Position numbers and translations under genes: made by a program. Positions 15,054 through 58,251 of a DNA stretch of 64,000 nucleotides are shown here, in pieces (position 1 is the first letter of the stretch; each line of letters opens with the position of its first letter). This DNA is from Ralstonia flaminis. Its GTDB lineage: Bacteria > Pseudomonadota > Gammaproteobacteria > Burkholderiales > Burkholderiaceae. The stretch is taken from NCBI RefSeq assembly GCF_958415495.1, contig NZ_CATZLL010000010.1:101267-165266 (forward strand), given 5' to 3'. The notes beneath the pieces are model-generated. The model saw only the letters and a list, made by a program, of their open reading frames with translations, had not been told where the DNA came from and made no database searches.

Positions 15054-15073
15054 TCGATGCGTCGATGACGCGA
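15054..15073 (+). repeat. 22-mer family copy b: TCGATGCGTCGATGACGCGA
   Basis: Inside the 560-bp non-coding region 14650-15210. Confidence 0.6.
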
Positions 15074-28478: not shown

Positions 28479-28570
28479 CCCCGAAAAGGCACCGGCCGGC
28501 TACCCCCTTTCGGGTCCGACTGTTGCCTTCACAGCGGCAACGATCAGATCAGGCGTCCGAGGCTTTCCCT

Positions 28571-28867: not shown

Positions 28868-28879
28868 TATCCGTTCTTC

Positions 28880-29047
28880 CGATCAACCTTCCGCCTTACC
28901 GTCTGCCACCATCCAGGCCATGGCAACCAGCAAAGCGATCAGCGTTGAAACCCACCAGTACGAACTAAACGAATAGCGATCAACCTGCATCCACAAAAGA
29001 CTACCAACCGCATCAACTAACCCCGGCAGCGCATATTTTGCATTCAT
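28880..29047 (-). CDS. Small membrane protein, 55 aa (MNAKYALPGLVDAVGSLLWMQVDRYSFSSYWWVSTLIALLVAMAWMVADGKAEG)
   Basis: Own translation (below the track size cutoff). Has an AGGACAACGACG-ATG RBS-like context. Confidence 0.3.
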
Positions 29048-29057
29048 CGTCGTTGTC

Positions 29058-29291
29058 CTATTTCGTCAGCCCGCGCGGTGCCGGCGTCTTTCCTTCGCAC
29101 TTATCACTGGTCCTGTAGGCCGCCACCTTGCGAATGTGCTTGCTCCCGCTGGGGCGATGCCCGGTCTGGTGAGGCAACGGCTCTGTCGGGAAAGGAAGCA
29201 CTTCGCGGCAATGCTTGCAGCTATAGCCGTTGCCGTGTTCACACAGCGGCGAGAGTGGTTCGTCCCAGTGTGGCGGCCGGCGACTCGGCAT
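29058..29291 (-). CDS. Small Cys-rich protein, 77 aa (CEHGNGYSCKHC)
   Basis: Track ORF. Confidence 0.3.
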   Translation of the reverse strand: MPSRRPPHWDEPLSPLCEHGNGYSCKHCREVLPFPTEPLPHQTGHRPSGSKHIRKVAAYRTSDKCEGKTPAPRGLTK

Positions 29292-29299
29292 GTTTCTTT

Positions 29300-29725
29300 C
29301 TACCGCCCAATGAGAAGGTCACGCAGATGCTGTTCCTGCTCTTGCCGGTCGAGCACGGACTGCGGAAAGTTCTCTTTCAGCCCCAGCCAGATCCGGCCAA
29401 GGTCGTCTGCGTAGGAATGGAGTCCTTCGGAACGAACCTGTTCAATGAACATCATCAGGTCCATCATCGACTTTCCAACCTTGGGGCCCTGCGCGACCAG
29501 CACCTTGCCTGCCTTCATCGCCTGCACCGCAGACGCCCAGTCCGCACACCCTGCCCGGCGCGCAAATGCATCGCACGGATGCACGATCTTGGCGCCTGGC
29601 CCGAACATCGCTTCAACCAAGTCGGTCGGCTTCGACAAATCCACTTTGAACGGTGCTGCGACAGGCTGGCTGGCCAGGTGCCCCAGCAGGTGCTGCGGAT
29701 CGGTACTGTTGTTCGCAATTGACAT
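29300..29725 (-). CDS. Hypothetical protein, ~141 aa (start MSIANNS with AGGAAA RBS)
   Basis: Internal start of track ORF 29300..29800. Confidence 0.45.
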   Translation of the reverse strand: MSIANNSTDPQHLLGHLASQPVAAPFKVDLSKPTDLVEAMFGPGAKIVHPCDAFARRAGCADWASAVQAMKAGKVLVAQGPKVGKSMMDLMMFIEQVRSEGLHSYADDLGRIWLGLKENFPQSVLDRQEQEQHLRDLLIGR

Positions 29726-29762
29726 GGTCTGTTTCCTTCTACCGGCGCAGCCGGCGTTTTTC

Positions 29763-29951
29763 CTATCCCGGTATGACGAACGATGCGACTGCCGCCGCAA
29801 TGCACAGGGCGATCACGCCCAATGAAACCGATCGATTGAATGGTGCAATCACCCCCAGGCTGAAAGCCGACATGAAGAGCACTCCGATGAGTGCCAATCC
29901 GATTTGGCCAAGTAGTGTTGTTGGCATAGCCTGCGCCCTTGTTTTATTCAC
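29763..29951 (-). CDS. Small membrane protein, 62 aa
   Basis: Track ORF with two hydrophobic helices. Confidence 0.3.
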   Translation of the reverse strand: MNKTRAQAMPTTLLGQIGLALIGVLFMSAFSLGVIAPFNRSVSLGVIALCIAAAVASFVIPG

Positions 29952-30044
29952 CCTTTCCTTCTACCTGCGTAGCCGACGCGCGAAGCGCACACACGCCGAA
30001 AGAAGTTCCTAGCCGGTCTACGTAGTCGCAAACTGTTGGCAGTG

Positions 30045-30437
30045 TTAGTTTGATTCGCCTTTCACAAGGCGCAGAAGGCGCGCTCGCTCGGTTTCGCGCG
30101 GCCCAATAGCAGCGGGCACGCCATATCCAACCGGCGCGGCCTTGGCCCACATGCCCATCAGCCGCTCCCGATCAGCGAGCATGATCGCCCCACGCTCTTT
30201 CACCGCATCACGAACGGCTGCGCGGTACACGGGTGAGCCCGCCGTATAGCCGTCCGCCAGGATGCGGTACGTCACGGCATCAACTTCGCGGCGTTGCTCT
30301 GCGGGATTCGAGATGACGCCAAATAGCACCAGCACCGCATTCAGTGCGATCGCCACGGCGGCGCATTGCACCATGAGGGCGAGAATCCGCCACCTGAGTG
30401 GCTTTTTGGGCTTGGGTTCGGGGTTCATTGTGTGCAC
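30045..30437 (-). CDS. Membrane-anchored protein, 130 aa
   Basis: Track ORF with an N-terminal TM helix. Confidence 0.4.
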   Translation of the reverse strand: MHTMNPEPKPKKPLRWRILALMVQCAAVAIALNAVLVLFGVISNPAEQRREVDAVTYRILADGYTAGSPVYRAAVRDAVKERGAIMLADRERLMGMWAKAAPVGYGVPAAIGPRETERARLLRLVKGESN

Positions 30438-30566
30438 CAGACATTCCGAATGGTCGTTCGTACGCTCTCACAACGCAGACGCGCGACTTCGCACGGCAAA
30501 GGCCGTGGGCGCACTGGTGGCACGCCCACGACCTCAACTCGACACGGCGCCGCCATCACCGGGAGC

Positions 30567-30953
30567 TTAAGCACGGCGAGGCTCATCTGCTCGCTTGCGA
30601 GGACCGCGCCAGACCTGGAAGACACCCACCGCCCCCAAGCCTGTGGCCACGACAAGAGCCGCAAACATCGACCGCTGCAGCACGCGAATGGTGCTCTCGG
30701 CACCGGCGATCGCTCGATAGACCTCCTCCGCGATCGGGCCCGGCGTGCTGGCAAGCAGCGTATTGAAGGGCACCAGCTCCAGTTCGTGCGTGGCCGAAAC
30801 CAGTTGATCCGCCAACACGAGCGCAACGCTTGGAGCTGACATCAGGGCCGTCAGTAACAGTCGGCCCAATCCCCGCTTCGCGCGCTGACGCAGAAAAGGC
30901 GCCCCGGCACCACGCCAATGCTCCGTCCCGATGTTATGTCTCCCCGCGTTCAT
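30567..30953 (-). CDS. Membrane protein, 128 aa
   Basis: Track ORF. Confidence 0.4.
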   Translation of the reverse strand: MNAGRHNIGTEHWRGAGAPFLRQRAKRGLGRLLLTALMSAPSVALVLADQLVSATHELELVPFNTLLASTPGPIAEEVYRAIAGAESTIRVLQRSMFAALVVATGLGAVGVFQVWRGPRKRADEPRRA

Positions 30954-30962
30954 CGCGCTGGC

Positions 30963-33038
30963 TTAGGGGGCCGGGAGGGCTTCGGGCTTGACCGCTGACT
31001 CGCCATTCAAGGGCAGACCACTTCCCTTGTGCATGCCATCGCGAATCAGATTGGCCAGCAGCACTTCCACGAGAGTACCGCCACCACTACCGCTGCCGCC
31101 GGTTGCAACGACATCCGGCACCAGCTTCATCCCGGAGCCGGCAAGCGCCTCCGCGACCTGGACGACGGCGTAGTTGCCGCTCTCCATCGAGTCGATCTTC
31201 TGCTTGATGACGCTGGCCTCCGCGGTACCGATGGCCTCGACCTTCGCGGCCTCCGCTTCACCCACCAGCCTGACCACCTTGGCGTCCGCTTCCGCGTTGA
31301 TCGTCTTAGCTTGCGCTTCACCCTCGGCCTGCTTCACCGCCGCCCGAGCGTTGAACTCCGAGATGGACACCTGACGCTCTGCGTCGACCACCTTCGCCTG
31401 GGTATTGGCCAGGGCCGTCGCTTGCTCCAGCTCCTGACGGACGGCTTGGGCTTGCTTCTGGGTTTCGAACGTGACTCTCTCCTGCTCGGCCTGCTTCCGG
31501 TCGGTCAGGGTCTGCATCAGCTGCTCGGGTGGCACGATGTCGCCGATCAGCGTGTCAACCGCGCCGACGTTGTACTCAGCCAGCGCGTCACCGATGGCCT
31601 TTCGGGCGTCGTCCTGACGCTTCGACCGCTCACGCAGGAAGTCGATGATGTCGGAGGCCTGGGCGCTGTTACGGAAGTAGTTGCCAATGGTCGGTTCAAG
31701 GACCTGCGTCACCAGCGCGGACATATCACCGAATCGGGCAATGACCTTCGGAGCATCGTTGCGCGGAATGTGGATGATCTGGCTGACATCGAGGTTGAAC
31801 TTGAAGCCATCTGCCGAGCGTACCGTGATGGTCGACAGATTGGCGTCGAGCTTGTGGGCCTCCGATTTCCCTGCCGCCCAGTTCAGCACGACGTTTGCGG
31901 TCGGCACATTGCGGATCTTGTGGGTGTAGGGATTGATCGGATACTTGCCCGGATCGAGCGGCTCGGCCCATACTCCCTTCTCACCACGCGAGACGAGGTT
32001 GGCATGCTTGAAGGAATCGCCGGAAACGTCCCGTCCCTCGTTGCCGACATAGGCGATCACCACGCCGACGTGGGCAATCGGTACCTCGGTCATATCGACG
32101 ACGTCAACGGTGGCGAAGCGCGGGTTGATGAAGTAGCGGCCGGCGAGGAGCACCTGTTCCTGCAAACCCTTGCAGCCCCCGTTCTGGATGAACGCCTGCG
32201 GATTCTGGAACATGTTGTGGTCAGGCACTTCCGGGCCAGCGATTTCGCCCCGCCCCAAGGGCTTGCCTTCGCGCGTAGTCACGATGCCGACTTTGTTGTC
32301 GGGAATGTCCACCACTTCGGCCACATTGACATCGAAGAGTACCGGGTTGATGCGATAGGAACCCGGGGCGATGATGCCACTCTGCGGCCCACGCTCACCA
32401 CCGTTTTCCAGGAACGAAGCGCCATCCTGGTAGGAGTCACACACTACCTGCTTGGCGATTACGCGGCCCGCCGGCAACGGTGAGCCGTCACGGGCTTCCA
32501 CGACGCCGATCTGGCTGGGCGGGATCGTGATGGTATCCGCGAGCGTGACCTTGAACAGCAGGGGATTGACCCGATACGTGCCCGGCGGAATTACATCGAT
32601 CTGCGGGCCACGTTGGCCATCTCCCTCGAGGAACTGCCGCGCGTCCTGAAACATGTCGCAGTTGATGCGTTTCGCAAGAATGCGGCCGCTCGGCAGAGGA
32701 TGGCCGTCACAGGCTTCGACGACCCCAACCTTCCCCACCGGGATCGTCACGAACTTCTTCAGCTCAACTGCGTACTGCCACGGCCAGAGCGCCCAATGGA
32801 GGCCCGGGGCGAGCGTGTCCGCCTGGTAACCAGCTTCGCCGGTCAGCGCCAAGATGCGCCCGTCGGGGAGACTGCGGTTTGAGCCGAAGAGAACGAATTT
32901 CTTCGTCACGACGCCAATGCTGTCATCGGGGACGATGATGACGCCAAACAGCCAGAGCACTTGGCGGTAGGCTGCTGCGATACTGATCACTGCGATTGCA
33001 CCCACAATCTGCCAAATATGACCGAGGAGGTAATCCAT
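30963..33038 (-). CDS. SPFH/band-7 (flotillin/YqiK-like) protein with duplicated N-terminal beta-rich repeats and a long C-terminal coiled coil, 691 aa
   Basis: N-terminal TM helix, three internal repeats (each ending ~GVVEA(C/R)DG(H/S)PLP(S/A)GRI(L/V)AK), an SPFH-like core, and an E/A/Q/K-rich coiled-coil tail (AEAEAAKVEAIGTAEA). Confidence 0.65.
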   Translation of the reverse strand: MDYLLGHIWQIVGAIAVISIAAAYRQVLWLFGVIIVPDDSIGVVTKKFVLFGSNRSLPDGRILALTGEAGYQADTLAPGLHWALWPWQYAVELKKFVTIPVGKVGVVEACDGHPLPSGRILAKRINCDMFQDARQFLEGDGQRGPQIDVIPPGTYRVNPLLFKVTLADTITIPPSQIGVVEARDGSPLPAGRVIAKQVVCDSYQDGASFLENGGERGPQSGIIAPGSYRINPVLFDVNVAEVVDIPDNKVGIVTTREGKPLGRGEIAGPEVPDHNMFQNPQAFIQNGGCKGLQEQVLLAGRYFINPRFATVDVVDMTEVPIAHVGVVIAYVGNEGRDVSGDSFKHANLVSRGEKGVWAEPLDPGKYPINPYTHKIRNVPTANVVLNWAAGKSEAHKLDANLSTITVRSADGFKFNLDVSQIIHIPRNDAPKVIARFGDMSALVTQVLEPTIGNYFRNSAQASDIIDFLRERSKRQDDARKAIGDALAEYNVGAVDTLIGDIVPPEQLMQTLTDRKQAEQERVTFETQKQAQAVRQELEQATALANTQAKVVDAERQVSISEFNARAAVKQAEGEAQAKTINAEADAKVVRLVGEAEAAKVEAIGTAEASVIKQKIDSMESGNYAVVQVAEALAGSGMKLVPDVVATGGSGSGGGTLVEVLLANLIRDGMHKGSGLPLNGESAVKPEALPAP

Positions 33039-33071
33039 AGAGAAATCCAGGTTCTTGTGTGTTCTGCACTG

Positions 33072-33089
33072 CCAGGAACATGTTCCTGG
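33072..33089. promoter_or_regulatory. Perfect 18-bp palindrome CCAGGAACATGTTCCTGG, 34-51 bp upstream of the flotillin-like gene start; putative operator
   Basis: Read directly from the sequence. Member of a 3-copy GGAAC/GTTCC palindrome family. Confidence 0.5.
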
Positions 33090-33410
33090 TCAGGAGTTGC
33101 AAACCCTTTGGGGGCAACGGCGTTGTGCGCGCAAACCTTGGCACCGCCGCAACACGATTATGTCTGTCGCGCAGAACAGAATGATCGACAAGAGCCCTGT
33201 TTTTTCTGCCGCCTTTCTTCGGATTCAATGGCTGGCATCGGGTATGGGCTTGGCCGGCCCACTATCCGAACACTGGCACTGCGAGCACTTCACCGAGGAC
33301 GCGTCCGGCAGTAGCTGCTCCCCCCAGGCGGCAGGAAGAAGCTCGGTGCGTTCTCGCTCTTCGCCTCTTCGATCATCTCGCGTCCCCGCTTGCTCAAGAT
33401 TTCGAACGTG

Positions 33411-33941
33411 TCAGGAGTAGCGCCCGAGACTGTCATCTGTCGAGATAGCCAGCGCTTCGAGCCCCATGGCAGCTGCAGCAGCATCCGAGGCTCTCTGATC
33501 CGGAGCGTCATCGCCCCAGTTCCCGGACGTCCCAGCGCCCGAGAATTGTCCATGTGAATCAGTCGGCATGCCATGATGATACGAGTTGAGCGCACTGAGT
33601 AGCAGCGTTCTCAGGCTGGTCGGAACATCTGTCGCCATGTACAGCCAGAGATCAAAATCATCGCTGTCGCTGGACAGCTTGTCGCTTCCGACGAACTGCT
33701 GTCTGGAAGGCATTGAACTGGTCTGCTGACGACGAGAATTCAATGCTGTCCTCTCGCGAGCAACATCGGCAATCTTCCTGATCTGTGCCTCTGCCTGGGC
33801 GGGCAACGGCACCTTCTTGGCTTTCACCTGCCCAAGCAGGGCGAGCAGATCCGCGCTCTGCTCGGCGGAAGCCGTGGACTGGGCAATGTGCGCATCCAGC
33901 TCCGCGTTGGTGCGCTCTATCTCGGCGTCAATGCGAGGCAA
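33411..33941 (-). CDS. Hypothetical coiled-coil protein (start uncertain; frame of track ORF 33411..34154)
   Basis: Coding-like C-terminal two thirds, but no convincing start codon or RBS. Lies downstream of palindrome m1. Confidence 0.25.
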   Translation of the reverse strand: MPRIDAEIERTNAELDAHIAQSTASAEQSADLLALLGQVKAKKVPLPAQAEAQIRKIADVARERTALNSRRQQTSSMPSRQQFVGSDKLSSDSDDFDLWLYMATDVPTSLRTLLLSALNSYHHGMPTDSHGQFSGAGTSGNWGDDAPDQRASDAAAAAMGLEALAISTDDSLGRYS

Positions 33942-33953
33942 CCCATGCCCGCA

Positions 33954-33971
33954 CCGGGAATGAGTTCCCGG
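33954..33971. promoter_or_regulatory. 18-bp palindrome CCGGGAATGAGTTCCCGG (arms of 7, non-complementary central 4 bp), followed by GTGGGATGAAAG
   Basis: Read directly. Related to the copies at 33072 and 40094. Confidence 0.45.
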
Positions 33972-34038
33972 TGGGATGAAAGCCAAGATGCCCCGAAGAA
34001 CGTGGCAAGGCCTGTTGGTAGCACCGTGTGGCGCGGAA

Positions 34039-34059
34039 TCGATGCGCGAGAAGCGCGAG
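34039..34059 (+). repeat. Degenerate 22-mer-like copy: TCGATGCGCGAGAAGCGCGAG, 67 bp to the right of palindrome m1
   Basis: Shares the TCGATGCG prefix and GCGCG-N3-GCGCG dyad. Weaker match than the others. Confidence 0.3.
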
Positions 34060-34220
34060 ATAAGAAGGCAGGATATTCGATGCAAAGGAACACGCACCAG
34101 AGGCACGTTCTGCGCACTCCTAGGCAACCTCGCGCAGCGGCTGCAGCACAACATCCCGGTCGACTCTCAATGCCGCTCAGAAAGAAAAAAGGCCATCCTT
34201 CGGAGGATGGCCATGTTCAA

Positions 34221-35012
34221 TCAAGCAGCAATTCGCGGCGGCTTCTGCGCCTTGCGCATACTCGGCACGTACCCGAATCGCGCCCATGCCTCCGGGTCTA
34301 CCGGGAGCGGACTCGTGCGCCCCGCTTCGAGATTTACAAACACACCGCTGTACTGCAGCGTCCCGGTGCGGAACAATGTCCAAAGCAAATTGAAGGCTTG
34401 CACTGCAATCGCCTGGTTGATGACCAGCGACTGCTTGCGCAGCGCATCCTCCATCGAACAAGACGGCGCCGTGTCCTTTGCATCGCGCTTCGGATCAATC
34501 AGCTCAGGAAACAGGTCGCCGACGTGAGGTAGGCGATGTTCAGCCCGGCCGCGAACTTGGCCAAGGATGACTTGACCACGATCGGTCTCATTGCCGCAAT
34601 CGAGATAGTAGCCGCCCGTGCCGCGTTGCATGGCCTTGAGGATGGCCTTTCGCGCCGCCCTCGTATCCACACATCCAACGACCAAATCACAGCAGAACCG
34701 ATCATTGGCATTGATACGCTGCACTTCCGCCTGCCAGTTGGTGCCCATGAGCACATTCAACCGATTGACCAGAAGAGCAGCCTTGTGCCGACCGACATCC
34801 GCTGGATAGAAGCCCTGGCGGCCGACGTTGCTCTCACTGACCGTGTCATCGTCATAGACGACACAGTCGATACCACCGGGATGGCCAAGTTCGAGCATGG
34901 CGTGATGGAGCCGCGCCAGACTTGGGATAACCGCACTCCCCGTTCCGCCGGCGCCTACTACAGCAATGCGCCATGCCCGCTCTGTCATCGCGCGAGGGAT
35001 GCTATGCGTCAT
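34221..35012 (-). CDS. PRTRC system ThiF-family E1-like protein (~263 aa from MTHSIPRAM; track ORF extends to a GTG at 35099)
   Basis: Rossmann nucleotide-binding motif IAVVGAGGTGS and CxxC-type cysteines (CCDLVVGC ... LDCGNE). Last gene of the PRTRC cassette order ParB-E-C-F-B-A-ThiF. Confidence 0.65.
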   Translation of the reverse strand: MTHSIPRAMTERAWRIAVVGAGGTGSAVIPSLARLHHAMLELGHPGGIDCVVYDDDTVSESNVGRQGFYPADVGRHKAALLVNRLNVLMGTNWQAEVQRINANDRFCCDLVVGCVDTRAARKAILKAMQRGTGGYYLDCGNETDRGQVILGQVRGRAEHRLPHVGDLFPELIDPKRDAKDTAPSCSMEDALRKQSLVINQAIAVQAFNLLWTLFRTGTLQYSGVFVNLEAGRTSPLPVDPEAWARFGYVPSMRKAQKPPRIAA

Positions 35013-35017
35013 TTTGG

Positions 35018-35692
35018 TCACACAACCTCCCGAATGCCGAACTTCTGCCTCCAGGCGGCCGGTATGTCGTGGACACGTTCGAAGATGCCCTTGACGCACA
35101 ACCTTAACGCCATGGACGGGCGAATGCTTGCGCAGTTGCCCAGCACGAACGCAAATTTCACGTCGTGCCTGTCGTCCTGATTGTCGGTTCCCGAGAAGAA
35201 GGCTTCAAACGTGCCATGGGAATGGCAGTCCATGACCAAGTGCTCGTTTTCCTGCAGCACCGGCCGGTCGTAACGCAGATGTCCGGAGCCGTGATCCAAG
35301 ATTGCGACAGGGACGAGCCGGAACTCGCACGAGACGCCATTCCAGACGATCCAAGCACCGGTTTCGTTCGGCATCGACGCACGCGCCATCTCGCCAAACT
35401 GGCCAACCAGTTCAGCTGGAAGTTGACCGCATGGCAACTCGGTCTCCTCATTGACAGTCCCGTAGGGGACGGCAGTTTCGACTTCGTAGCTTGCGATCTT
35501 GCGAACTACCCGCAGCCACGGGCGAACCACTTCGAGGAACACGCCGTTGGTTCCCACCAGCAGGCGTTCACCACTACCAGACAATGGTGTCAGGCTACCG
35601 AATTTCGGCACCATGATCGTCGGGAAAGACGCTTGCAGCGTCATGTCCATCGGATGCATTTCAACCTCCAACTTTGCCGGCGATGAGATCAC
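35018..35692 (-). CDS. PRTRC system protein A, JAB/MPN (JAMM) metalloprotease-like, 224 aa
   Basis: JAMM motif HSHGTFEAFFSGTDNQD (H-x-H-x7-S-x2-D). Position directly upstream of the ThiF gene. Confidence 0.65.
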   Translation of the reverse strand: MISSPAKLEVEMHPMDMTLQASFPTIMVPKFGSLTPLSGSGERLLVGTNGVFLEVVRPWLRVVRKIASYEVETAVPYGTVNEETELPCGQLPAELVGQFGEMARASMPNETGAWIVWNGVSCEFRLVPVAILDHGSGHLRYDRPVLQENEHLVMDCHSHGTFEAFFSGTDNQDDRHDVKFAFVLGNCASIRPSMALRLCVKGIFERVHDIPAAWRQKFGIREVV

Positions 35693-36383
35693 CGAGCGAT
35701 TTCTTCAACGGAATGAGCACTTCCTTCGGGTACTCGGCAAAGTTGCCATCGAGCATCTCCTTCCAGAAGGCGTACACACCTCTTTCGAACTTGACGCGTT
35801 GGGCGCCGCGGTTTGGATGCGTGAAGGCCGACGAGAAGAAGGCTTCTTCCCAACCGGCAATCGAAGCGACATCGATCTGCTTCGGAACCTGCGCAGAGCC
35901 GATGCAAATCCTTCCCACGTCCCACGTATTGAAGTACGGCGGCTCGTGCAGCATGGATTCCGGCGTCGGCCTGACGTCCTCCATCAAGGCAAACACGCTG
36001 AACCCGTCATTGGCCGCCTGGAACACCAAGCCCGGGTGCGGCACTACCGCACTGCGCGTACCCAATTCTTTGCATTGAAAGAACACCCGGCGAATCGCCG
36101 GCGGGCACCACCACGTTACGGCGCGCGTGCTCACGGACAGTACGTTCGGCGTCAGGAACTCGCCCTTCGGCAACGCTGACAAAGCAACCTGGGTCACAGC
36201 GTGAATGAGTGCTCGCCGATTGAGCGGAACACCCGGGCCGATTGCAGGCTTTCGAGTCCCCGCCTCGTGAGTGATGCGGTGTGCCGTCGAGTATGTGAAC
36301 TGCCCCTCGGCCGGCCCATACAGCAAAATGGCCCCTTGCAGGGCCACGTCATGAGACCGACTGGCGGTCAAGATCTTGGCCAT
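35661..36383 (-). CDS. PRTRC system protein B, 240 aa
   Basis: Size and position within the cassette. Overlaps the protein A start by 32 bp. Confidence 0.5.
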   Translation of the reverse strand: MAKILTASRSHDVALQGAILLYGPAEGQFTYSTAHRITHEAGTRKPAIGPGVPLNRRALIHAVTQVALSALPKGEFLTPNVLSVSTRAVTWWCPPAIRRVFFQCKELGTRSAVVPHPGLVFQAANDGFSVFALMEDVRPTPESMLHEPPYFNTWDVGRICIGSAQVPKQIDVASIAGWEEAFFSSAFTHPNRGAQRVKFERGVYAFWKEMLDGNFAEYPKEVLIPLKKSLGDLIAGKVGG

Positions 36384-36391
36384 GGGGCCTC

Positions 36392-37528
36392 CTATCGTGA
36401 AATGATGGTCAGTAATTGGTCGAGAGCCTTTACGATCTCGAACATGCGCGACAGGTCCTCATACTGCTTGGGCACCTGTTGCGGGTCGCTCGCCAGCGGA
36501 ATCAGCACCTGGTACATCGTCGCCTCTCCGCTATTGCTAATGCATTCGAAATGGTCATCCAGCAGTTCGCCGATCCACTCTTCGGAAAACACCGCAATGG
36601 AAGCGGCCGAATATGCAGGTTCGGCCCATTGCGAATGTTCGAAGAGCTTCGAGCCCTTGGCGCGCTGCAGTGCATCTTCCAGCTGCAGCATCGCGCGGCA
36701 TACCCGCTGAATCCAGCGACTTGACGAACGCGCCAGCTCCAGCACCTCCGACCTCTTGAGAACGGACCGCCGAGGGCCTTTCCGGCCCTTGCGCTTGCCG
36801 CGCTCGGGGAACATTTCTTCCGGCGCCAGGACCGGACGAACATTGGAAGGCAGGTAGCGCTCGATGTCCTCACTGTCAGCCCCAAGGCGATCAGCAAGAC
36901 TCTCCCTCGCGTTCTCGTCGGACACACCCTCATCCCAATCCCACCACCACCTGGCGAACATCTCCAGGAAGTAACTCGGTGTGCGCAAGAAGAGCGAGTT
37001 GCAGGACGCTTCGTTGATCAGCGCCATCACAGAGCACAAGAGCCCGGGGTGGGCGCGCTGCAGTGGGTGCATCCGTGCGCCAATCTCGAAGATCTGCTCA
37101 TGAGGCAACTCGATCGCCAAGTACAACGGCGCCGAGAGGTCCGTCTCCCATCCAAACTGATCGACCTGATCGCGTGCTGCCGCCTGGTCGAGCAAAGCGA
37201 ACCCAAACAGAAGCCGCTTGCACGTCGGTGTGCGTCGCCGCAGCCACGCGAACATCGCCTCTGCGAACATGTCACCAGCATTGCCGCTGGAGCGAGCGTC
37301 GCGCGGCGAGAGCGGACCAGCCTCGAAATGCGCCCGTATCAGACCGGTAAGGTCTCCCTCGTCGGTATGCCGAAGGCGTGCAATCGCTGGAACGCATTGT
37401 GAAATGGCCGGGAGTGTTAGAAAACCATCGGCAGCTCTATGTCCGGCAGGGGAATCGAATCGACATGCCGCCCCGCCGGTGAGGCTTTCACTGAAGCCTG
37501 ATAAACCTTGGCAAGAATCGAACAACAC
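36392..37528 (-). CDS. PRTRC system protein F, 378 aa
   Basis: Size and position within the cassette. Confidence 0.45.
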   Translation of the reverse strand: MLFDSCQGLSGFSESLTGGAACRFDSPAGHRAADGFLTLPAISQCVPAIARLRHTDEGDLTGLIRAHFEAGPLSPRDARSSGNAGDMFAEAMFAWLRRRTPTCKRLLFGFALLDQAAARDQVDQFGWETDLSAPLYLAIELPHEQIFEIGARMHPLQRAHPGLLCSVMALINEASCNSLFLRTPSYFLEMFARWWWDWDEGVSDENARESLADRLGADSEDIERYLPSNVRPVLAPEEMFPERGKRKGRKGPRRSVLKRSEVLELARSSSRWIQRVCRAMLQLEDALQRAKGSKLFEHSQWAEPAYSAASIAVFSEEWIGELLDDHFECISNSGEATMYQVLIPLASDPQQVPKQYEDLSRMFEIVKALDQLLTIISR

Positions 37529-37627
37529 GATTCCACCTCCTCATCATGTAGAAAAACCGCCCTATCGGGCGGTTTCTCAGTTCCATTGATGCTGACCGGA
37601 TCGGCCAACGCATTCATCAGATCGCGC

Positions 37628-37846
37628 TTACGCATGGTTGCCCTTTGCGCCCGCGGCACGCACGAACTTGTACACAGCGTTTTCCCCCTTGTACTCCGGA
37701 CCCTCCACGGCTGCCGTGGTGAGTTCGGGATACTGGGCGGTGTACATGTCGCGCACTTGGTCCGGAGTGAACTGCGTTCCCGGATCGGCAAGCGTCATGC
37801 CGTTGTAGGAAAACTCGCGCTTGACCGTGTTGATGGTGATAGCCAT
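37628..37846 (-). CDS. PRTRC system protein C (ThiS/MoaD-like ubiquitin-like protein), 72 aa
   Basis: 72-aa acidic protein in the expected cassette position. Confidence 0.5.
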   Translation of the reverse strand: MAITINTVKREFSYNGMTLADPGTQFTPDQVRDMYTAQYPELTTAAVEGPEYKGENAVYKFVRAAGAKGNHA

Positions 37847-37855
37847 GGCTTCTCC

Positions 37856-38341
37856 TTAACCGAGCAGATCAGCGAGGGAGGTGCCAGACGATTTTTTGTC
37901 GCCTTGCGCATCTTTAGCTGACGAACTCGTGCTACCGGACGTCGTTTCAGTGACCTCAACATCGACCACACCATCGTCATCGTCGTCGTCCATGCCTTTC
38001 GACTTGGGCGCCGGCAACTTCGGATTGGCGCGATTGGATGTCGCGAGGGCCTTGGTCGCCTTGTTCGACTGAGCAGCGGTAGCCGCTTGAATCACCGCCT
38101 TCGTGGACTCGACCTGTTCGGCGAGACCCTGGCGGGCCTGCGTCACACCACCGATCGCATTGGCAAACTCAGCATCCAACTCCGCCGGCGTGGCCGTCAG
38201 AGCAATCGGCGCAACCAGGGCTGCGTCGTCCGGCTTGCTGACGGTCGGCGCGACGACCACGGTCATCTCGTCACCCTGCATTGAAAGGGTGATAACAACC
38301 TTGTCGCTCGCCTTCACGAGCGGCACCAGTTCTTGAAACAT
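37856..38341 (-). CDS. PRTRC system protein E, 161 aa (acidic, Asp-run DDDDDDG)
   Basis: Position between the ParB and protein C genes; low-complexity acidic C-terminus. Confidence 0.5.
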   Translation of the reverse strand: MFQELVPLVKASDKVVITLSMQGDEMTVVVAPTVSKPDDAALVAPIALTATPAELDAEFANAIGGVTQARQGLAEQVESTKAVIQAATAAQSNKATKALATSNRANPKLPAPKSKGMDDDDDDGVVDVEVTETTSGSTSSSAKDAQGDKKSSGTSLADLLG

Positions 38342-40050
38342 AGGGATTTCCTTGAAAATGAATGGGATGGGGAAGCGAGGCGTGGTCGGAACTTCAAGAC
38401 CTTGGGCACCTTGCCCGTGTAGTCAAACCCGTCTACCTTGAGGAGGGCCTCAATGACTTCGAGCTTCGATTGGTTGAACAGCTTGGAAAAGCGATCGCCG
38501 AGCGCGTTGCGCATGCCCAGCTCGTCGGCGAGAGCCTTCAACTCCGATTTGGTCAGGAGTTCCAGAAAATCCTTGGATTTCTGAAGGTTCCAGTGCTTGG
38601 TCAGGTCGAGCGCGTGGTACTTGCAGAGCGACGTCAAGACAGGCACATCGATTCCTTCGATCGCGGCAAGCGCGAGCGAGATCGTCAGATTGAGCCGCTT
38701 GTCAGTAGCCAGGCCGGCCACAGAGATAAGGTTCTTCGAGAGATCGGTGGGAGAGCTGGTCTCGTCCGCGATCCGTTCAAAGAGCGTCCCCATCTTGTCG
38801 CTGGTGATGGTGCGTGCATGACCGGACAGCGAAAGTGCGAGGAGATAGTGGTTGGCCGTTGCTTCGTTGGCCGCCACCTCCCGGCGTAGCGCCTTGCGCC
38901 ACACCCCTTGTCGGTAGGTCTTCACCTTGTCCGACTCGGCAATCGACGTGGCCGCGTGTTCGGCCTTTCCGCCCTTGTCCGCGCCCTCCTTGGCCGGCGC
39001 GGCTTTGGGGCCCTTAACAGTAGACGGCGCTTCAGCGCGCTCGGCCTTGATCCTCGCTGCAACCTTCTTGGCATTGCAGGACGGATCAAAACACTGACCA
39101 CGGAAGACCTTGCCCAGGCTGTCCGGCAGACCACTCACCGCGGCGCCGAAATTCTGGCAGCCGTGACATGCTTTCGCCTGTTCGGCACCGACTCCCGTCG
39201 GTCCCTCCACCTGCAATTGCACGCGCGTGTGGTTGTCGCCAGCGCGGACGATACGGATAACCGGGTATTCGTCCTTCAGGCCGTACGAGATACCTTCCAG
39301 CTGCGTCTCGGTCTTGCCCTTGTAGCAGGTCGGGTTGGTACAGCTACCGGAGGAAATCGCCTCGGAAAACATCACCGACTGCAATTCCGAGTTGTGCGCG
39401 CATGTCGCACACTCGCTCTTGTCGAAGATCGCGTCCTTCAGGTTGCAGGCAGCTTGTTCGATGGCCTTCTTGAGGTCCGCCACCGTCTTTTTCTCTTGCA
39501 GAATGATCGGCAAGAACAGGTCCTGCTTTTCCTTCGTCAGGGTCGCAAGCAGCTCGGCATGCCCAAGCTGGATGGAACGCGTGTTCAGCGCGTCCAGCAC
39601 CGCAGGACTGCAGTTCATTAGCGCCAGCCGGCGGTCGAGGGTCGATCGCGGCCAGCCGAGTTGGCGGGCAGCTTCATCGCGGTCACCTTTCAGGTCCCCA
39701 ACGATGTCCGCGGCCGCAACGGCTTCTTCAGACGGCGCCATGTCGGCGCGCTGAACGTTCTCGATGAGCGCCAGCCGGCGCGCTTCCCCTTCCGTCATCT
39801 CACGGATGACAACGGGCATGTCGTAATCGTCACCGCAGGCAGCTTTCGCCCCACGGTACCGGCGCTCGCCAGCGACCAGTTCGTAGGTGCCGTCCTCAAG
39901 AGGGCGCACCAGTACAGGTTGAATTACGCCATCCTCACGGATGGACTCCGTGATCTCCGCCATTTTCGCGGGATCGAAGTACTTCCGGGGGTTCTTGCCC
40001 GGCCGGATTTGGCCGAGTTTGACGGTGACGCTCTGTTGGTTTTCTTGCAT
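38314..40050 (-). CDS. PRTRC-associated ParB-family protein, ~579 aa (start MQENQQS with GGAGA RBS; track ORF extends to 40206)
   Basis: N-terminal ParB/Srx nuclease-like domain with GERRYRGA and QPVLVRP motifs. Large C-terminal extension. Confidence 0.65.
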   Translation of the reverse strand: MQENQQSVTVKLGQIRPGKNPRKYFDPAKMAEITESIREDGVIQPVLVRPLEDGTYELVAGERRYRGAKAACGDDYDMPVVIREMTEGEARRLALIENVQRADMAPSEEAVAAADIVGDLKGDRDEAARQLGWPRSTLDRRLALMNCSPAVLDALNTRSIQLGHAELLATLTKEKQDLFLPIILQEKKTVADLKKAIEQAACNLKDAIFDKSECATCAHNSELQSVMFSEAISSGSCTNPTCYKGKTETQLEGISYGLKDEYPVIRIVRAGDNHTRVQLQVEGPTGVGAEQAKACHGCQNFGAAVSGLPDSLGKVFRGQCFDPSCNAKKVAARIKAERAEAPSTVKGPKAAPAKEGADKGGKAEHAATSIAESDKVKTYRQGVWRKALRREVAANEATANHYLLALSLSGHARTITSDKMGTLFERIADETSSPTDLSKNLISVAGLATDKRLNLTISLALAAIEGIDVPVLTSLCKYHALDLTKHWNLQKSKDFLELLTKSELKALADELGMRNALGDRFSKLFNQSKLEVIEALLKVDGFDYTGKVPKVLKFRPRLASPSHSFSRKSLCFKNWCRS

Positions 40051-40093
40051 TTGTGGGTTCTCCAGGGATGGAAAAGGGGAACCCGTTGCCGCA

Positions 40094-40111
40094 CCGGGAA
40101 CAGGTTCCCGA
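40094..40111. promoter_or_regulatory. 18-bp near-palindrome CCGGGAACAGGTTCCCGA (44-61 bp upstream of the ParB start), followed by ATGGGATGGAAAATGAAAG
   Basis: Read directly. Same family as 33072 and 33954. Confidence 0.5.
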
Positions 40112-40194
40112 TGGGATGGAAAATGAAAGCGAGGGCCACCGAACCGCTGGCCCTCGGACAACCGCGAGACGCTGCGCGTCCTGCGATCAGGAGA

Positions 40195-40214
40195 TCGATG
40201 CGTCAAAGACGCGG
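40195..40214 (+). repeat. 22-mer family copy g: TCGATGCGTCAAAGACGCGG, 83 bp to the right of palindrome m2, upstream of the ParB/PRTRC operon
   Basis: Read directly. Confidence 0.6.
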
Positions 40215-40316
40215 AGTGAGCTTTGAGAATACCGGAAACACGTCTGCGGTGCCAGACAGCGGATCCCCCTCCGCAGATGGGGACCCGCTCTTGCGCGAGG
40301 CCGGCCAGTGGCCAAC

Positions 40317-41249
40317 CTAGAACAACGACAATTGCTCACGTTGCCGGGCAATTTCAGCGTGCTGTTGCGGCACCGCTTCAATGATGGCCGGCGCTTGCGG
40401 CGGTTCAATCGCCTCCAGAATCGACAGGACCGTACCCATTTCTGCGGGCACGAAATTGCGTTCGGAATCAACGGGCGGGGAGGTTTCCTGGCTACGCTCA
40501 CGCGCAGCCAGTTTCCGGTTCCACCCGCCAAGCACGTGCGCTGGTGTGTACCAAACCTCGCGCTCCTCAAGCATCAATGAGTTGCCAAGGATGACAACCG
40601 CAGGGATATGGAGCAAGGCCAGCTGCACATACGTCATGTGTACGCACCGTGGATCGATATCGATGCACGTTGCATGCATGGCCGTCTGGTAGTTGTGGCC
40701 CGCCTGATGCATAGCCTCCGCCATTGCGATCACCATGCCACCAGCGCCGCAGGTTGGCTCCATCACGGTGATGAAGCCATGTTCCGCGACGTCCGGATCA
40801 TGGTCATTGACCTGCATCGCAGCCATCATGCTGGATACCGAATAGGGCGTGAAAAACTGCCCCGCCCTATCGTTGCCCAGCTCAAGCAGCATGTAGGTGT
40901 GACCAAGCACATCGCCAAAGCCACCGGCGACTCTGACCGGCGCCGGCGACCCGGGAAGGACATCAGTCATCCGGCGCTCGTAAGTGAGCACGAGGTGGCC
41001 AAGCATCTTCGGGAACTGGTCCACTTCTTCTTTGGTGTACTTCTTGACGATCTCCATGTACCGAGCCTCTCGGCCGTCTCGCTGAGCGAGATCGACCGCA
41101 TTGCTGAGGCTCAGTGCGGACATCTCAACGAAGTCGGAGAACACATCGCTTGCGCGGTGACGGTACCCGAAGGCCTTGATCAAATCGACCAAGGCCTTTT
41201 GGTGTTCGTCGGCGGTCTCCAGGTGCCGGCGTTGTGCTGCCCTGCTCAT
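40317..41249 (-). CDS. N6-adenine DNA methyltransferase (gamma-class-like), ~310 aa
   Basis: Motif I EPTCGAGGMVIA and motif IV FFTP (the NPPY-equivalent). Start at MSRAAQ overlaps the stop of the upstream gene (ATGA). Confidence 0.6.
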   Translation of the reverse strand: MSRAAQRRHLETADEHQKALVDLIKAFGYRHRASDVFSDFVEMSALSLSNAVDLAQRDGREARYMEIVKKYTKEEVDQFPKMLGHLVLTYERRMTDVLPGSPAPVRVAGGFGDVLGHTYMLLELGNDRAGQFFTPYSVSSMMAAMQVNDHDPDVAEHGFITVMEPTCGAGGMVIAMAEAMHQAGHNYQTAMHATCIDIDPRCVHMTYVQLALLHIPAVVILGNSLMLEEREVWYTPAHVLGGWNRKLAARERSQETSPPVDSERNFVPAEMGTVLSILEAIEPPQAPAIIEAVPQQHAEIARQREQLSLF

Positions 41250-41620
41250 TGCAGAGCCCCAACTCGCACATTGAAGCGCTGGTTCAGCGATGCGCAAAAG
41301 GCATCCATGTCGGGGACCGCGCCAATAGCCAGAGCGGCTTTGATGTCGGCTTCAGCGACCCGGAGTTCCGATTCCACATCGATAGTCGATGCCACACTAG
41401 TCGAAGCATTGCTGCGCACAGTCTCCACAACAGCACGTGCAATTCGCACACAGAACAGCTCGAACTCGTGTGTTACCTCAGCTTCTTTCCTGATCCGCGT
41501 TGCACGCAACGATGGATCGAGGATTGGCAAGGCCTCCTGTTCGAAACGAGCCACCACCAGGTAGCTTTCGAAGGCTTTGAGCTGTGCTTCTTTGAAACGC
41601 TGAATAACGGCGTTGAACAT
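41246..41620 (-). CDS. Hypothetical protein, 124 aa, translationally coupled to the methyltransferase gene
   Basis: Track ORF; its stop overlaps the MTase start. Confidence 0.45.
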   Translation of the reverse strand: MFNAVIQRFKEAQLKAFESYLVVARFEQEALPILDPSLRATRIRKEAEVTHEFELFCVRIARAVVETVRSNASTSVASTIDVESELRVAEADIKAALAIGAVPDMDAFCASLNQRFNVRVGALQ

Positions 41621-41883
41621 GGAACGTCTCCAGAAAATGGACGAGAGACGTCCCTGCTGGGACGGCTCCCAGCGGGGAAGAAGATGGAACGACCTGACCG
41701 ACCAGCGCTAACGAATCGGCGTGCGTAGGCACACCGCGACGTAGCGAAGTTCGCTCAGGTGTTCAAGGGAAAGACCGGCCGCAGAATGCGAACGATAGGC
41801 CGACACGTGCAGTGTCGGAGATGAAACCGGACCCTACAGCTGTGGGGGAAACAAGATGTAGGCCGCCCAGATGGCGGTCAAAA

Positions 41884-41903
41884 TCGATGCGTCGTAGACG
41901 CGG
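41884..41903 (+). repeat. 22-mer family copy d: TCGATGCGTCGTAGACGCGG (identical to copy a)
   Basis: Intergenic, between 41620 and 41972. Confidence 0.6.
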
Positions 41904-41971
41904 CAAACCGTTTCAGAATATCGCAGTTGCTCTGCATTTTCCAGCAGCTGCGCGCACGCGCGCCCAGCCCG

Positions 41972-42460
41972 CTACCACCTTCCTGGCATCGGCCGCGTCA
42001 TTGCAGCGCTCCGCAAGCGATTGACGACGGCCCAGCGATAGTGGTCCTTCTCCTCTGGTTCTTGCATCCCTGAGAAGTCTGGCATCAACCCCGCCAGCAG
42101 GCCCGGTGCGTCCTCACGAAGCACGCCGTCAGCGATGAGCTTGTTGCGTAGTAGCTTGGAGACGCTCCAGCCAATCTCCTTGAACGCCACATAGTCCCAA
42201 CGAGCTGGAATGAGGTCCTCGCTGAACCACGCTTCGCCGCCGTGCCCAACAACCCCCACCACAGTGTGGTGTATGCCTTGCGAATCCGAATGCACGCGCG
42301 CCTCGAACCGCAGCACATGCGGCTCCGGGAACCAGAAGACGCGATCCAGCATGCGCGCGAAGGCCTGCGCCTCAATGCTGGCCAGTGCCTGGTCTTCAGC
42401 CTCCCCAAACTGGGAGCAGGGTTCGGCCTTTGGGCGGCCGCCTATTTCAACTTCTCGCAT
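41972..42460 (-). CDS. Hypothetical protein, 162 aa
   Basis: Track ORF. Confidence 0.4.
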   Translation of the reverse strand: MREVEIGGRPKAEPCSQFGEAEDQALASIEAQAFARMLDRVFWFPEPHVLRFEARVHSDSQGIHHTVVGVVGHGGEAWFSEDLIPARWDYVAFKEIGWSVSKLLRNKLIADGVLREDAPGLLAGLMPDFSGMQEPEEKDHYRWAVVNRLRSAAMTRPMPGRW

Positions 42461-57252: not shown

Positions 57253-58251
57253 ATGAAAGCCGCCACCGTTGCCGTCGACGTCGGATACGGAAACACCAAG
57301 TTCGCGTTCCCGATGGGCTCCGAGACCAAGCTGAACATGTTCCCGTCCCTCGCGCCGCAAGCCGCGCCACGCGCGCTTGCCAACCACGGGAACGGCTTCT
57401 TCAAAGCGCGCGACGTAATCACCATTGCCATTGACGGCGTGGAATACGAAGTCGGCCCCGGTGTGTCGCTCTCCTCGGCATATGGTCAGACCGGCCGCAC
57501 GCTGTCGGAGGACTTTGTGACCAAAGACGAGTACGCCGCGCTGCTGGGTGGCGCCCTGCGCCTCGCCCAGGTATCGGAGGTGGGCCAACTGATCCTAGGC
57601 CTGCCCGTTCACACGACCCAGAAATACGCTTCCTACTTGCGCGATCGCTTCACAGGAACGCTTGATTTCGGGGGCGAACCCGTTGAGATCGGATCGGTCA
57701 TCTGCTTGCCGCAACCGCTCGGCGCGCTGGTGACGTTTATGCGCCAACAGAACACCAAGTTCGATGCCGACAACGCGCACCTGGTCATCGATGTCGGCTA
57801 CTTCACCACCGATTGGGTGGTCGCCCAGGGCTTCACGATGGACGACAATCGCAGCGGCGGCGTACCGGGCGGCTCGTCCAAGATCTATCAGCAGATCGCA
57901 TCGCTGATTGAGCAGGACGAGGGTGAGCCTGTCACCGGCATTGAGCGCATCGACAAGTGCCTGCGCGACAAAAAGCCGATGCTGTTCTTCGACAAGGAGA
58001 TCGATCTCACGCCGTATCTGGAAAAAGCGCGCAGCGTCTGCCAGCTCGCCGTCAAGGAAATCCAGACCCGCGTCGGCCGAACCGAAGACATCCGCGCGAT
58101 CATCCTCGCCGGCGGCGGCAGCGCACTCTATGTGCCTGCCATTCGTGCCGCGTTCCCGCGCACCCCCATCCATGCCCTTTCCTCCCCGTGCTTCGCTAAT
58201 GTGAGCGGCTTCTACGACATTGGTAGCACGCGCCCGGTGAAGCAGAAGTAA
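57253..58251 (+). CDS. parM: ParM/StbA-family actin-like ATPase (plasmid segregation), 332 aa
   Basis: N-terminal phosphate-1 motif VAVDVGYGNTKFA and the actin-fold connect/adenosine motifs (IDVGYFTTDW, ILAGGGSALY). Confidence 0.7.
   Translation: MKAATVAVDVGYGNTKFAFPMGSETKLNMFPSLAPQAAPRALANHGNGFFKARDVITIAIDGVEYEVGPGVSLSSAYGQTGRTLSEDFVTKDEYAALLGGALRLAQVSEVGQLILGLPVHTTQKYASYLRDRFTGTLDFGGEPVEIGSVICLPQPLGALVTFMRQQNTKFDADNAHLVIDVGYFTTDWVVAQGFTMDDNRSGGVPGGSSKIYQQIASLIEQDEGEPVTGIERIDKCLRDKKPMLFFDKEIDLTPYLEKARSVCQLAVKEIQTRVGRTEDIRAIILAGGGSALYVPAIRAAFPRTPIHALSSPCFANVSGFYDIGSTRPVKQK

Follow-up and report, generated by a model that had tools for sequence, protein, structure and literature searches.

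The PRTRC cassette of a Ralstonia plasmid: a probable ubiquitin-like conjugation pathway behind a leader element common to plasmid backbone operons

The fourth operon type described by Iyer, Burroughs and Aravind (type 6d; Iyer et al., 2006, PMC1779556) combines a ubiquitin-like protein (Ubl) with a conserved C-terminal glycine, a JAB peptidase that carries a JAB-N domain, proteins of the E1-like and E2-like kinds, the latter with a conserved histidine downstream of its cysteine, and a helical protein. This operon type is equal to the ParB-related, ThiF-related cassette (PRTRC; TIGR03734-TIGR03742), a copy of which occupies positions 34221-40050 on the minus strand of the 64,000-nucleotide stretch of Ralstonia flaminis contig NZ_CATZLL010000010.1 analysed here (hereafter the window). 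Two further classes, type II CBASS with Cap2/Cap3 (type 6b) and Bil, share with PRTRC the E1-like enzyme, the E2-like protein with a catalytic cysteine and the JAB/JAMM peptidase. In Bub (6E/DUF6527), for which protein conjugation has been shown, the E1 and E2 are devoid of catalytic cysteines, the intermediates are oxyesters and the peptidase is a serine protease (bioRxiv 10.1101/2024.11.21.623953).

Seven co-oriented genes make up the window cassette, with gaps of 1-99 nt and an overlap of parB with the start of E, and follow one another along the direction of transcription as ParB-E-C-F-B-A-ThiF. The same order was found in 65 of 65 full-length loci of a related set (80 loci totalling 1.49 Mb, gathered via the alignment of C, all from Burkholderiaceae). 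Each of the seven products passes its own family hidden Markov model (HMM) far above the cut-off (Table 1), which bears out the initial annotation in its claim of a complete seven-gene cassette; ThiF, A and C, on which at least it had made that claim depend, pass as widely as the other four. The motifs that it quoted were likewise found, namely GAGGTGS in ThiF, the JAMM signature HxHx7SxxD in A, GERR in ParB and a C of 72 residues. D, the eighth PRTRC family, is also above its cut-off and lies 17 kb from the cassette on the opposite strand. Compared with the norm of type 6d, nothing essential differs in this plasmid-borne locus, the departures being the unlinked D, a 24-residue read-through of ParB and an alpha/beta model of F. 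A Shine-Dalgarno (SD) sequence precedes every start codon of the cassette and fixes the starts of ParB (ATG 40050, 8 nt after an SD of GGAGA), F (GTG 37528), A (ATG 35659) and ThiF (ATG 35012); the parB open reading frame (ORF), which had been listed from a TTG at 40206, was corrected accordingly.

Over its whole length the window differs from the Ralstonia pickettii plasmid NZ_CP104383.1 at 4 positions. When the 6.1 kb at 34221-40320 were used as the query, three Ralstonia megaplasmids were found about 1 base off, and Cupriavidus pHG1-type plasmids matched at ~71% identity over coding parts. Because the cassette is a known kind of system and this instance has already been annotated (on NZ_CP104383.1 all these genes were given PRTRC names by NCBI's annotation pipeline, PGAP), its novelty as a finding is low and the locus itself is no discovery. 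The earlier statement that the function of the cassette is still unknown holds, as no functional study was found in the literature on PRTRC, which consists of annotation-level mentions, some of them wrong. PRTRC appears as annotation only in PMC3318190 and PMC7466150; genome papers including the latter label it an active partition system, and one preprint wrongly expands the name as 'Pilus Retraction/Contraction system' (bioRxiv 10.64898/2025.12.11.693706), neither reading being backed by experiment.

The enzymes of the cassette retain the motifs of a conjugation pathway. ThiF carries VVGAGGTGS and DDDxVSxxNVGRQ and retains its nucleotide-binding and Mg motifs; GAGGTGS, NVGRQ, GCVD and the cysteine in PSCSM are conserved across 78 homologues from the related loci. 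A carries HSHGTFEAFFSGTD, which corresponds to HxHx7SxxD; its metal site is intact by motif and catalysis is predicted. In B, the residues Cys160, His189 (within FTHPN), Asn152, Pro117 and Pro149 are invariant among 35 diverse homologues of 30-50% identity; the upstream HPN histidine is absent and the conserved His189 stands downstream of the cysteine instead. Sequence searches of the PDB gave no match for B and no match at E 1e-3 for ThiF. C ends in an invariant FVRAAGAKG, which in the C-terminal alignment is followed by 0-11 unconserved residues, several homologues stopping at the glycine itself; the window protein has a tail of three residues (NHA) past Gly69. An invariant glycine with a variable tail behind it is what characterises a Ubl precursor. 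In each of five cassettes that lack an annotated A (JAMM) gene (Pseudomonas aeruginosa pPUV-19, Aeromonas, Alteromonas, Vibrio and Shewanella), C ends exactly at the glycine, and the four tailed C proteins compared with them, those of the window, Xanthomonas (+60 residues), phage Dina (+62 residues) and Polaromonas (+70 residues), are all accompanied by a JAMM gene. Since the presence of a tail tracks the JAMM gene, a role of A as the peptidase that processes C is supported.

From family membership, catalytic motifs, gene order, the conserved glycine and leader conservation, all obtained by computation, we infer the biochemical steps, the target and the role set out below. We consider it reasonably probable that the operon encodes a complete pathway by which a mobile element conjugates a small Ubl to proteins, and that this pathway is linked here to a DNA clamp of the ParB type. 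C would be made as a precursor with a short tail past the invariant glycine, and the JAMM peptidase A would trim this tail and expose Gly69; by analogy, A could probably also act as a deconjugase that removes C from its targets. ThiF, as the E1-like enzyme, would adenylate Gly69, after which C would be passed as a thioester to Cys160 of the E2-like B and from there to a lysine of the target. F, with its invariant polar residues, and E, with its folded head, disordered acidic linker and C-terminal peptide, might serve as specificity or adaptor components, and ParB, in which the CTP-binding motifs and the helix-turn-helix (HTH) are intact, would place the machinery on plasmid DNA. A shared leader, with its -10-like box, its hairpins at the 5' end and of terminator type and a third hairpin masking the parB ribosome-binding site, would switch the operon on together with the plasmid backbone, and a conserved terminator-like hairpin after C would keep ParB, E and C above the enzymes. 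We favour a role in the establishment or replication of the element, whether incoming or resident, over partition as such and over a classical defence island.

Several points weigh against this pathway. The conjugation target of C was not identified, the literature searched gave no experiment on any PRTRC protein, and, without a PDB relative for ThiF by sequence, the assignment of Cys184 as its catalytic cysteine is tentative. As Bub demonstrates, non-thioester chemistry is open to the E1/E2 homologues of bacteria (bioRxiv 10.1101/2024.11.21.623953). No convincing parS-like site for ParB was found in the window, and the model of the leader draws on sequence and covariation, much of the latter being located in one pair, where it may reflect few evolutionary events. 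In addition, the further E1/E2/JAB operon classes of bacteria that the sources consulted name as characterised, type II CBASS as well as Bil, act against phages, which favours defence, and NCBI names a 6A-MBL anti-phage system, the NCBIfam model of which is matched weakly by ThiF.

An anti-phage or anti-plasmid defence system carried by large mobile elements is accordingly the alternative that has to be weighed most closely. In it, the Ubl would be attached to a protein of the invader or would switch on an effector, and foreign DNA would be sensed or marked by ParB; we regard such a system as a genuine but doubtful possibility. Both sister classes have been shown to be immune systems, ThiF matches not only the model 'anti-phage 6A-MBL system' but also the PADLOC CBASS E1-E2 models weakly, the distribution of PRTRC is sporadic and element-borne, the cassette is found in prophage-type phages, and protection or addiction roles were proposed by Iyer et al. 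(2006) (PMC1779556). PRTRC resembles type II CBASS and Bil in this sporadic carriage on mobile DNA and, presumably, in the conjugation of a protein via its C-terminus. However, E1 and E2 are separate in PRTRC and fused in Cap2; the PRTRC Ubl is a 7-kDa stand-alone protein, whereas CBASS conjugates the CD-NTase and Bil the multi-domain BilA; and ParB, E and F are partners unique to PRTRC, which has no cyclic-nucleotide synthase. Membership of a PADLOC family was found for none of the seven proteins (PADLOC-DB 2.0; weak Rossmann-region matches of ThiF only), and no effector such as a nuclease, pore or NADase is associated with the cassette. Instead of standing in variable defence islands, it occupies a fixed position of the backbone in all 65 Burkholderiaceae loci, with conserved backbone genes in the same orientation downstream of it and the leader element of these genes in front, and the copy of phage Dina lies in an early leftward operon and not in the position typical of a lysogen-expressed moron. 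Bub is similar to PRTRC in having separate E1, E2, Ubl and peptidase; in contrast to Bub, B keeps an invariant cysteine and the peptidase is a JAMM metallopeptidase.

The chemistry of the pathway also bears on a reading in which C and ThiF are a ThiS/MoaD-like sulfur-carrier pair for the synthesis of a thio-cofactor or metabolite, with no conjugation to protein. The weak matches of ThiF to ThiF/MoeB models, the beta-grasp family assignment of C and its C-terminal glycine are in line with such a pair, but ThiF is far below the ThiF/MoeB equivalog cut-offs, C and ThiF have a JAMM peptidase and an E2-like protein whose Cys and His are invariant as their fixed partners, and no rhodanese, ThiG/MoaE or biosynthetic gene lies in the neighbourhood, so that a sulfur carrier is highly improbable.

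Table 1. Coordinates of the PRTRC genes, the predicted RNA and promoter elements and related features in the 64-kb window.
Feature	Position	Strand	Evidence or remark
ThiF-family E1-like adenylating enzyme	34221..35012	-	TIGR03736 346.4 bits (cut-off 144.75); PF00899
A, JAB-N (DUF2016) + JAMM/JAB metallopeptidase	35018..35659	-	TIGR03735 248 bits (cut-off 102); PF09436, PF14464
B, E2-like (Prok-E2_D)	35661..36383	-	TIGR03737 260 bits (cut-off 131); PF14460 178 bits
F (Pfam alpha-hel2), 378 residues, start GTG 37528	36392..37528	-	TIGR03742 212 bits (cut-off 58)
C, ubiquitin-like (Prok_Ub), 72 residues	37628..37846	-	TIGR03738 108 bits (cut-off 46); PF14454
E	37856..38341	-	TIGR03741 99 bits (cut-off 38)
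ParB-family protein	38314..40050	-	TIGR03734 720 bits (cut-off 279), model 2-555/555; Pfam ParB_N, HTH_ParB
D, actin-like ParM-related ATPase	57253..58251	+	TIGR03739 375 bits (cut-off 215); Pfam ALP_N, MreB-like_C
Terminator-like hairpin and T-run directly past the thiF stop codon	34191..34212	-	
Intra-operon terminator-like hairpin AAACCGCCC-GATA-GGGCGGTTT and T-run, between C and F	37552..37575	-	
SD-enclosing leader hairpin, GGGTTC with GAACCC	40055..40084	-	parB SD GGAG 40060-40063
Palindrome CGGGAACAGGTTCCCG (CGGGAAC-CT-GTTCCCG), preceded by CCCAT	40095..40110	-	
GC-rich leader hairpin CGAGGGCCA..TGGCCCTCG then CTTTCATTTTC, terminator-like	40119..40156	-	
22-mer ATCGATGCGTCAAAGACGCGGA	40194..40215	-	Core GCGTC-TTT-GACGC-ATCGA forms a small hairpin/inverted repeat
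TATTCT, predicted -10-like TAnnnT hexamer	40226..40231	-	Motif logo; 16-21 nt upstream of the 22-mer hairpin
HsdM-like gene annotated 'N-6 DNA methylase', 310 residues	40317..41249	-	Upstream of parB in the direction of transcription

The distribution of the cassette was assessed via B, for which 1845 relatives were found at E up to 0.001 (50%-identity cluster representatives). Homologues of B are located on 330 plasmids (Pseudomonas 141, Burkholderia 32, Xanthomonas 23; also Aeromonas, Deinococcus, Shewanella and Vibrio) and in four phage records. The temperate 39-kb Ralstonia phage Dina (NC_055026.1, 947-5299) encodes E-C-F-B-A-ThiF in the same order, without ParB, in a leftward early operon downstream of an HTH repressor-like gene, and a Polaromonas plasmid encodes C-F-B-A-ThiF only. 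Because these two versions have no ParB, the Ubl module is taken to be the core of the system and ParB an addition in the plasmid and integrative and conjugative element versions; partition or plasmid conjugation is therefore unlikely as the primary role. As a separate observation, two of the B representatives (P0140 and P0207, 610-621 residues) have the E2-like B domain at the C-terminus, at residues ~380-610, which suggests that they are natural fusions, possibly with an F-like protein.

ParB is built of an N-terminal ParB/Spo0J CTPase-type domain, an HTH, two CxxC-x22-Cx4C units and a helical C-domain, and the boxes GERRYR and ENVQR can be read from its sequence. Its N-terminal ~200 residues align to the structures of Spo0J, Noc and ParB in the PDB with E values of 1e-31 to 1e-20 and to KorB at 3e-9, while no fold relatives were found for the C-terminal extension of ~330 residues. 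With the CTP-dependent DNA clamps Spo0J, Noc and KorB it thus shares the GERRxR and ENxQR boxes and the HTH; it differs from them in the 330-residue extension with two four-cysteine units and in having no ParA partner adjacent. In the window the ancestral parB stop codon at 38386-38388 has changed from TGA to CGA (G at 38388, A in NZ_CP104383.1), which is one of the four differences in 64 kb, and because of this change ParB runs on for 24 codons (RPRLASPSHSFSRKSLCFKNWCRS) to 38314 and overlaps the start of E. Among the 120 ParB homologues listed, nearly all have 547-566 residues, and 572 and 578 residues are the lengths of the only two full-length ones above this range; the loss of the stop codon may be genuine or may stem from an error in sequencing.

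It is on ParB and D that a partition or segregation system would depend, with ParB bound to a centromere, D as a ParM-like motor and the Ubl enzymes in a regulatory role. In its favour, ParB is closely related to Spo0J/Noc, D belongs with the actin-like, ParM-related ATPases, and several genome papers call the cassette a partition system. Nevertheless, D is 17 kb away on the other strand and lies within 10 kb of the cassette in only 1 of the 65 related loci, the Ubl genes of phage Dina and the Polaromonas plasmid occur without ParB, PRTRC plasmids also carry ordinary parAB loci, and a search of the window gave no repeated parS-like centromere, all of which makes partition quite unlikely. The only match within 2 mismatches of the chromosomal parS consensus, TCTTTCGCGTGTAACA at 22775-22790, is inside an AAA/MoxR-like gene and may be due to chance, and no repeated family of 16-bp palindromes was found in the window beyond the leader hairpins.

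The two remaining proteins, E and F, were examined for their build. An alignment of 78 homologues of E revealed a conserved N-domain of ~100 residues, a variable low-complexity linker rich in acidic residues, Ala and Pro, and a short, conserved, hydrophobic C-terminal peptide (37856-37885), which reads GTSLADLLG here, GT(D/N)LxxLL(G) in Burkholderiaceae and AELF, SFELF or GLDLPI elsewhere. This build loosely recalls the tails of single-strand binding proteins (SSB) or clamp-binding motifs. F gave no match in a sequence search of the PDB, and its AlphaFold2 model is alpha/beta, not purely helical. On the reference plasmid, PGAP lists a 337-residue F and a separate hypothetical ORF of 72 residues (window 37417-37635); the start of F was placed at GTG 37528 (378 residues) because of the conserved N-terminus MLFDP and the SD GAGGAGG, and the 72-residue ORF is probably spurious.

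A plasmid-borne copy of dnaN, the gene for the beta sliding clamp, was found within the cassette or beside it in 4 of the 9 distant plasmid contexts inspected, with the arrangements ParB-dnaN-E in Aeromonas, x-dnaN-E in Azospira and dnaN-ParB-E in Xanthomonas and a distance of 3.8 kb downstream in P. aeruginosa. In Xanthomonas ssb follows just past thiF, and in Shewanella a BRCT-domain gene is inserted in the cassette. The dnaN neighbourhood and these adjacent ssb or BRCT-domain genes, together with the SSB-like or clamp-binder-like build of E, whose C-terminal peptides (..AELF, SFELF, GLDLPI and GTDLASLL) loosely resemble clamp-binding motifs, suggest a link to the replisome. As a very tentative extension, to which we assign a low probability given the small sample and the loose likeness of the motifs, PRTRC might be a Ubl system directed at the sliding clamp or replisome, a counterpart on mobile elements of the ubiquitination or SUMOylation of eukaryotic PCNA. 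In such a system E may be the adaptor and ParB may load the machinery on DNA, and the Ubl may be conjugated to the beta clamp itself or to a host factor bound to the clamp or to SSB, favouring replication or establishment of the element.

Upstream of parB the initial annotation had proposed a candidate operator consisting of a palindrome and a 22-mer. Both are real and conserved (the palindrome had been placed at 40094, one base off its true span of 40095-40110), but they are not private to the cassette, being parts of a leader that is common to many backbone operons. The 22-mer recurs 4 times at up to 3 mismatches (0.01 expected). The leader was analysed in 77 upstream regions from plasmids whose ParB is 54-70% identical, of which 59 unique leaders were aligned. 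Of the 77 regions, 72 contain CGCATCGA and 75 contain GTTCCC, each keeping a fixed distance to the start codon, and the order across the 59 unique leaders is TAnnnT, a spacer of ~12 nt, CCGCGTC-NNN-GACGC-ATCGA, the GC-rich hairpin, CCCAT-CGGGAAC, GGTTCCC and the SD GGAGAACC. A scan for sigma-70 promoters at 33000-42000 gave no match, the TAnnnT hexamer having emerged only from the motif logo; it is found at the corresponding offset in 189 of 259 motif instances (window and related loci).

Conservation within the leader follows the predicted RNA structure. In the 22-mer hairpin the stem and the 3' ATCGA are conserved and the loop is not, and the fourth stem pair is UA in 47 sequences and CG in 12. 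The GC-rich hairpin keeps its structure across related leaders while its sequence varies, often with a T-rich tail. The SD hairpin is formed by 52 of 52 unique 3' leader segments, (C/U)(A/G)GGUUC pairing with GAACC(U/C)(G/A); in a separate alignment 88.6% of cells were paired versus 22-48% with a slid partner, one pair was GC in 20, AU in 16 and GU in 4 sequences and unpaired in none, and the covariation score exceeded those of all 500 shuffles. The 5' arm of the palindrome can pair instead with GGGTTCCC at 40077-40084. Because GGTTCCC can pair with either the upstream GGGAAC or the SD region, the parB leader looks like a translational switch. These patterns suggest that the leader elements act at least partly as RNA structure and not as a private operator of the cassette. 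An Rfam covariance search at 39900-40400 gave no match at E up to 1. As a separate candidate, a Frpo-like single-strand promoter in the 266 nt upstream of parB was considered and rejected, the plus strand folding into local hairpins only (z -2.8).

Within the operon, all 78 unique related loci have a hairpin and T-run ~50 nt past the stop codon of C that is equivalent to that between C and F of the window; expression of ParB, E and C should therefore exceed that of F, B, A and ThiF. The hairpin past thiF (34191-34212) marks the probable end of the operon.

The core of the 22-mer, GCG(T/C)(C/T)-N3-4-(G/T/C)(A/G)CGCATCGA, also written GCGTC-N3-4-GACGCATCGA, occurs 10 times in the window (63011, 56878, 41901, 40212, 34056, 28399, 27183, 23193, 15071 and 11443), always on the minus, gene-sense strand, and its copies front different plasmid backbone operons. 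The related loci contain 256 copies, every one of them on the PRTRC-sense strand, at a median of 100-200 nt upstream of parB, glycine-zipper, AAA/MoxR-like, HsdM-like and other genes, and a hairpin with a T-run lies within 110 nt past the core in 31% of instances versus 5% of random controls. The palindrome block is duplicated upstream of the next operon (33935-33990, with a paralogous palindrome at 33955-33970 and a degenerate 22-mer at 34039-34060), and a third GGAAC..GTTCC palindrome lies at 33072-33089, just upstream of an SPFH gene. The common leader element thus places the cassette in a backbone regulon. It has the look of a promoter-proximal or leader element that serves the whole regulon and has no earlier description; it may be a nut-like signal for antitermination, a stabiliser of the 5' end or an operator in the DNA where transcription starts. 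Like the nut-type leaders of phage lambda, it has a short conserved hairpin near the predicted 5' end and a terminator-like hairpin in the leader, with a further one inside the operon, and it fronts many operons, all in sense orientation; unlike lambda nut, no antiterminator protein has been identified for the PRTRC leader, its hairpin loop is unconserved and it has no Rfam family. The likeness to lambda nut or to an SD-sequestering switch is a resemblance only, the reading as a DNA operator being just as possible.

Some further observations concern this regulon. An AAAGC..CTTT inverted repeat, considered as an activator box, was present in only about one fifth to one third of instances and missing upstream of the window parB, and was kept as a lead only. 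A regulator of the FlhC family, encoded just outside the window, is a candidate for activating the promoters. The only Rfam match in the window is the sbcD RNA (RF01757; 14651-14798, minus strand, 139.7 bits, full length), which is preceded by the core copy at 15071 and followed by genes for a hypothetical protein and a DNA-repair exonuclease; a known orphan RNA motif, it may belong to this regulon as one of its leaders.

The initial annotation had the cassette followed by an adenine methyltransferase, which is mistaken in two respects, as the HsdM-like gene at 40317-41249 lies 5' of parB and its product has no catalytic motif IV. SAM (S-adenosylmethionine) motif I (EPTCGAGG) is present, the Pfam N6_Mtase model is matched at positions 22-115 of 311 only, and the PDB alignment covers residues 68-237 of a 542-residue HsdM and ends at motif I. 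Motif IV, (N/D/S)PP(Y/F/W), was found neither in this protein nor in its homologues from Burkholderia ambifaria and Azospira. By these sequence criteria the product is a member of a conserved, shortened HsdM-like family and not a demonstrable adenine methyltransferase; that it serves as a decoy against type I restriction is conceivable. The gene precedes parB in 36 of the 65 related loci, and a version of 250 residues follows thiF in Azospira pAZI09.

On the other side of the cassette, thiF is followed by a glycine-zipper gene and conserved hypotheticals in ~57 of the 65 related loci. In the window an insert of ~6 kb (~28200-34200) separates thiF from the glycine-zipper block and contains a small ORF, a 691-residue SPFH/flotillin-like protein, four small ORFs and a parB-type control block of its own. 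In B. ambifaria pBMC401 the same gene string runs on into VirB-type transfer genes. The neighbours in the window and its relatives are genes of DNA transactions, such as ssb, primase-like, UvrD-like, Lar and dnaN.

This neighbourhood also touches on counter-defence or host takeover, in which E1, E2 and JAMM would modify or de-modify host proteins, such as those of Ubl-based immunity or restriction enzymes, on entry of the element. The Lar restriction-alleviation gene, the HsdM-like gene without motif IV, ssb and the primase-like neighbours are typical content of early or leading regions, leading regions being rich in anti-defence genes (PMC11541004), and the copy of phage Dina stands among early genes. 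For the window, however, neither an oriT nor leading-strand polarity was established, the leader has no long hairpin of the single-strand promoter type, and no similarity to any known anti-defence protein was detected. We regard counter-defence as unlikely in its own right; it overlaps with the proposed Ubl conjugation pathway in the service of the element instead of excluding it.

PRTRC (6d) appears to be the one Ubl operon class of 2006 still without an experimental function, and it is common, being found on plasmids, including resistance megaplasmids of P. aeruginosa, and in temperate phages. The present locus offers a tractable model in the form of a compact operon on a sequenced Ralstonia plasmid, with clear catalytic residues and a leader common to the backbone. 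The details found here are the correlation between the glycine tail and the JAMM gene, the shared and apparently structured leader, the internal terminator-like hairpin, the ParB-less phage version and the dnaN neighbourhood. If the shared leader were an antitermination or translational switch, it would define how backbone genes are coordinated in this family of Burkholderiaceae megaplasmids.

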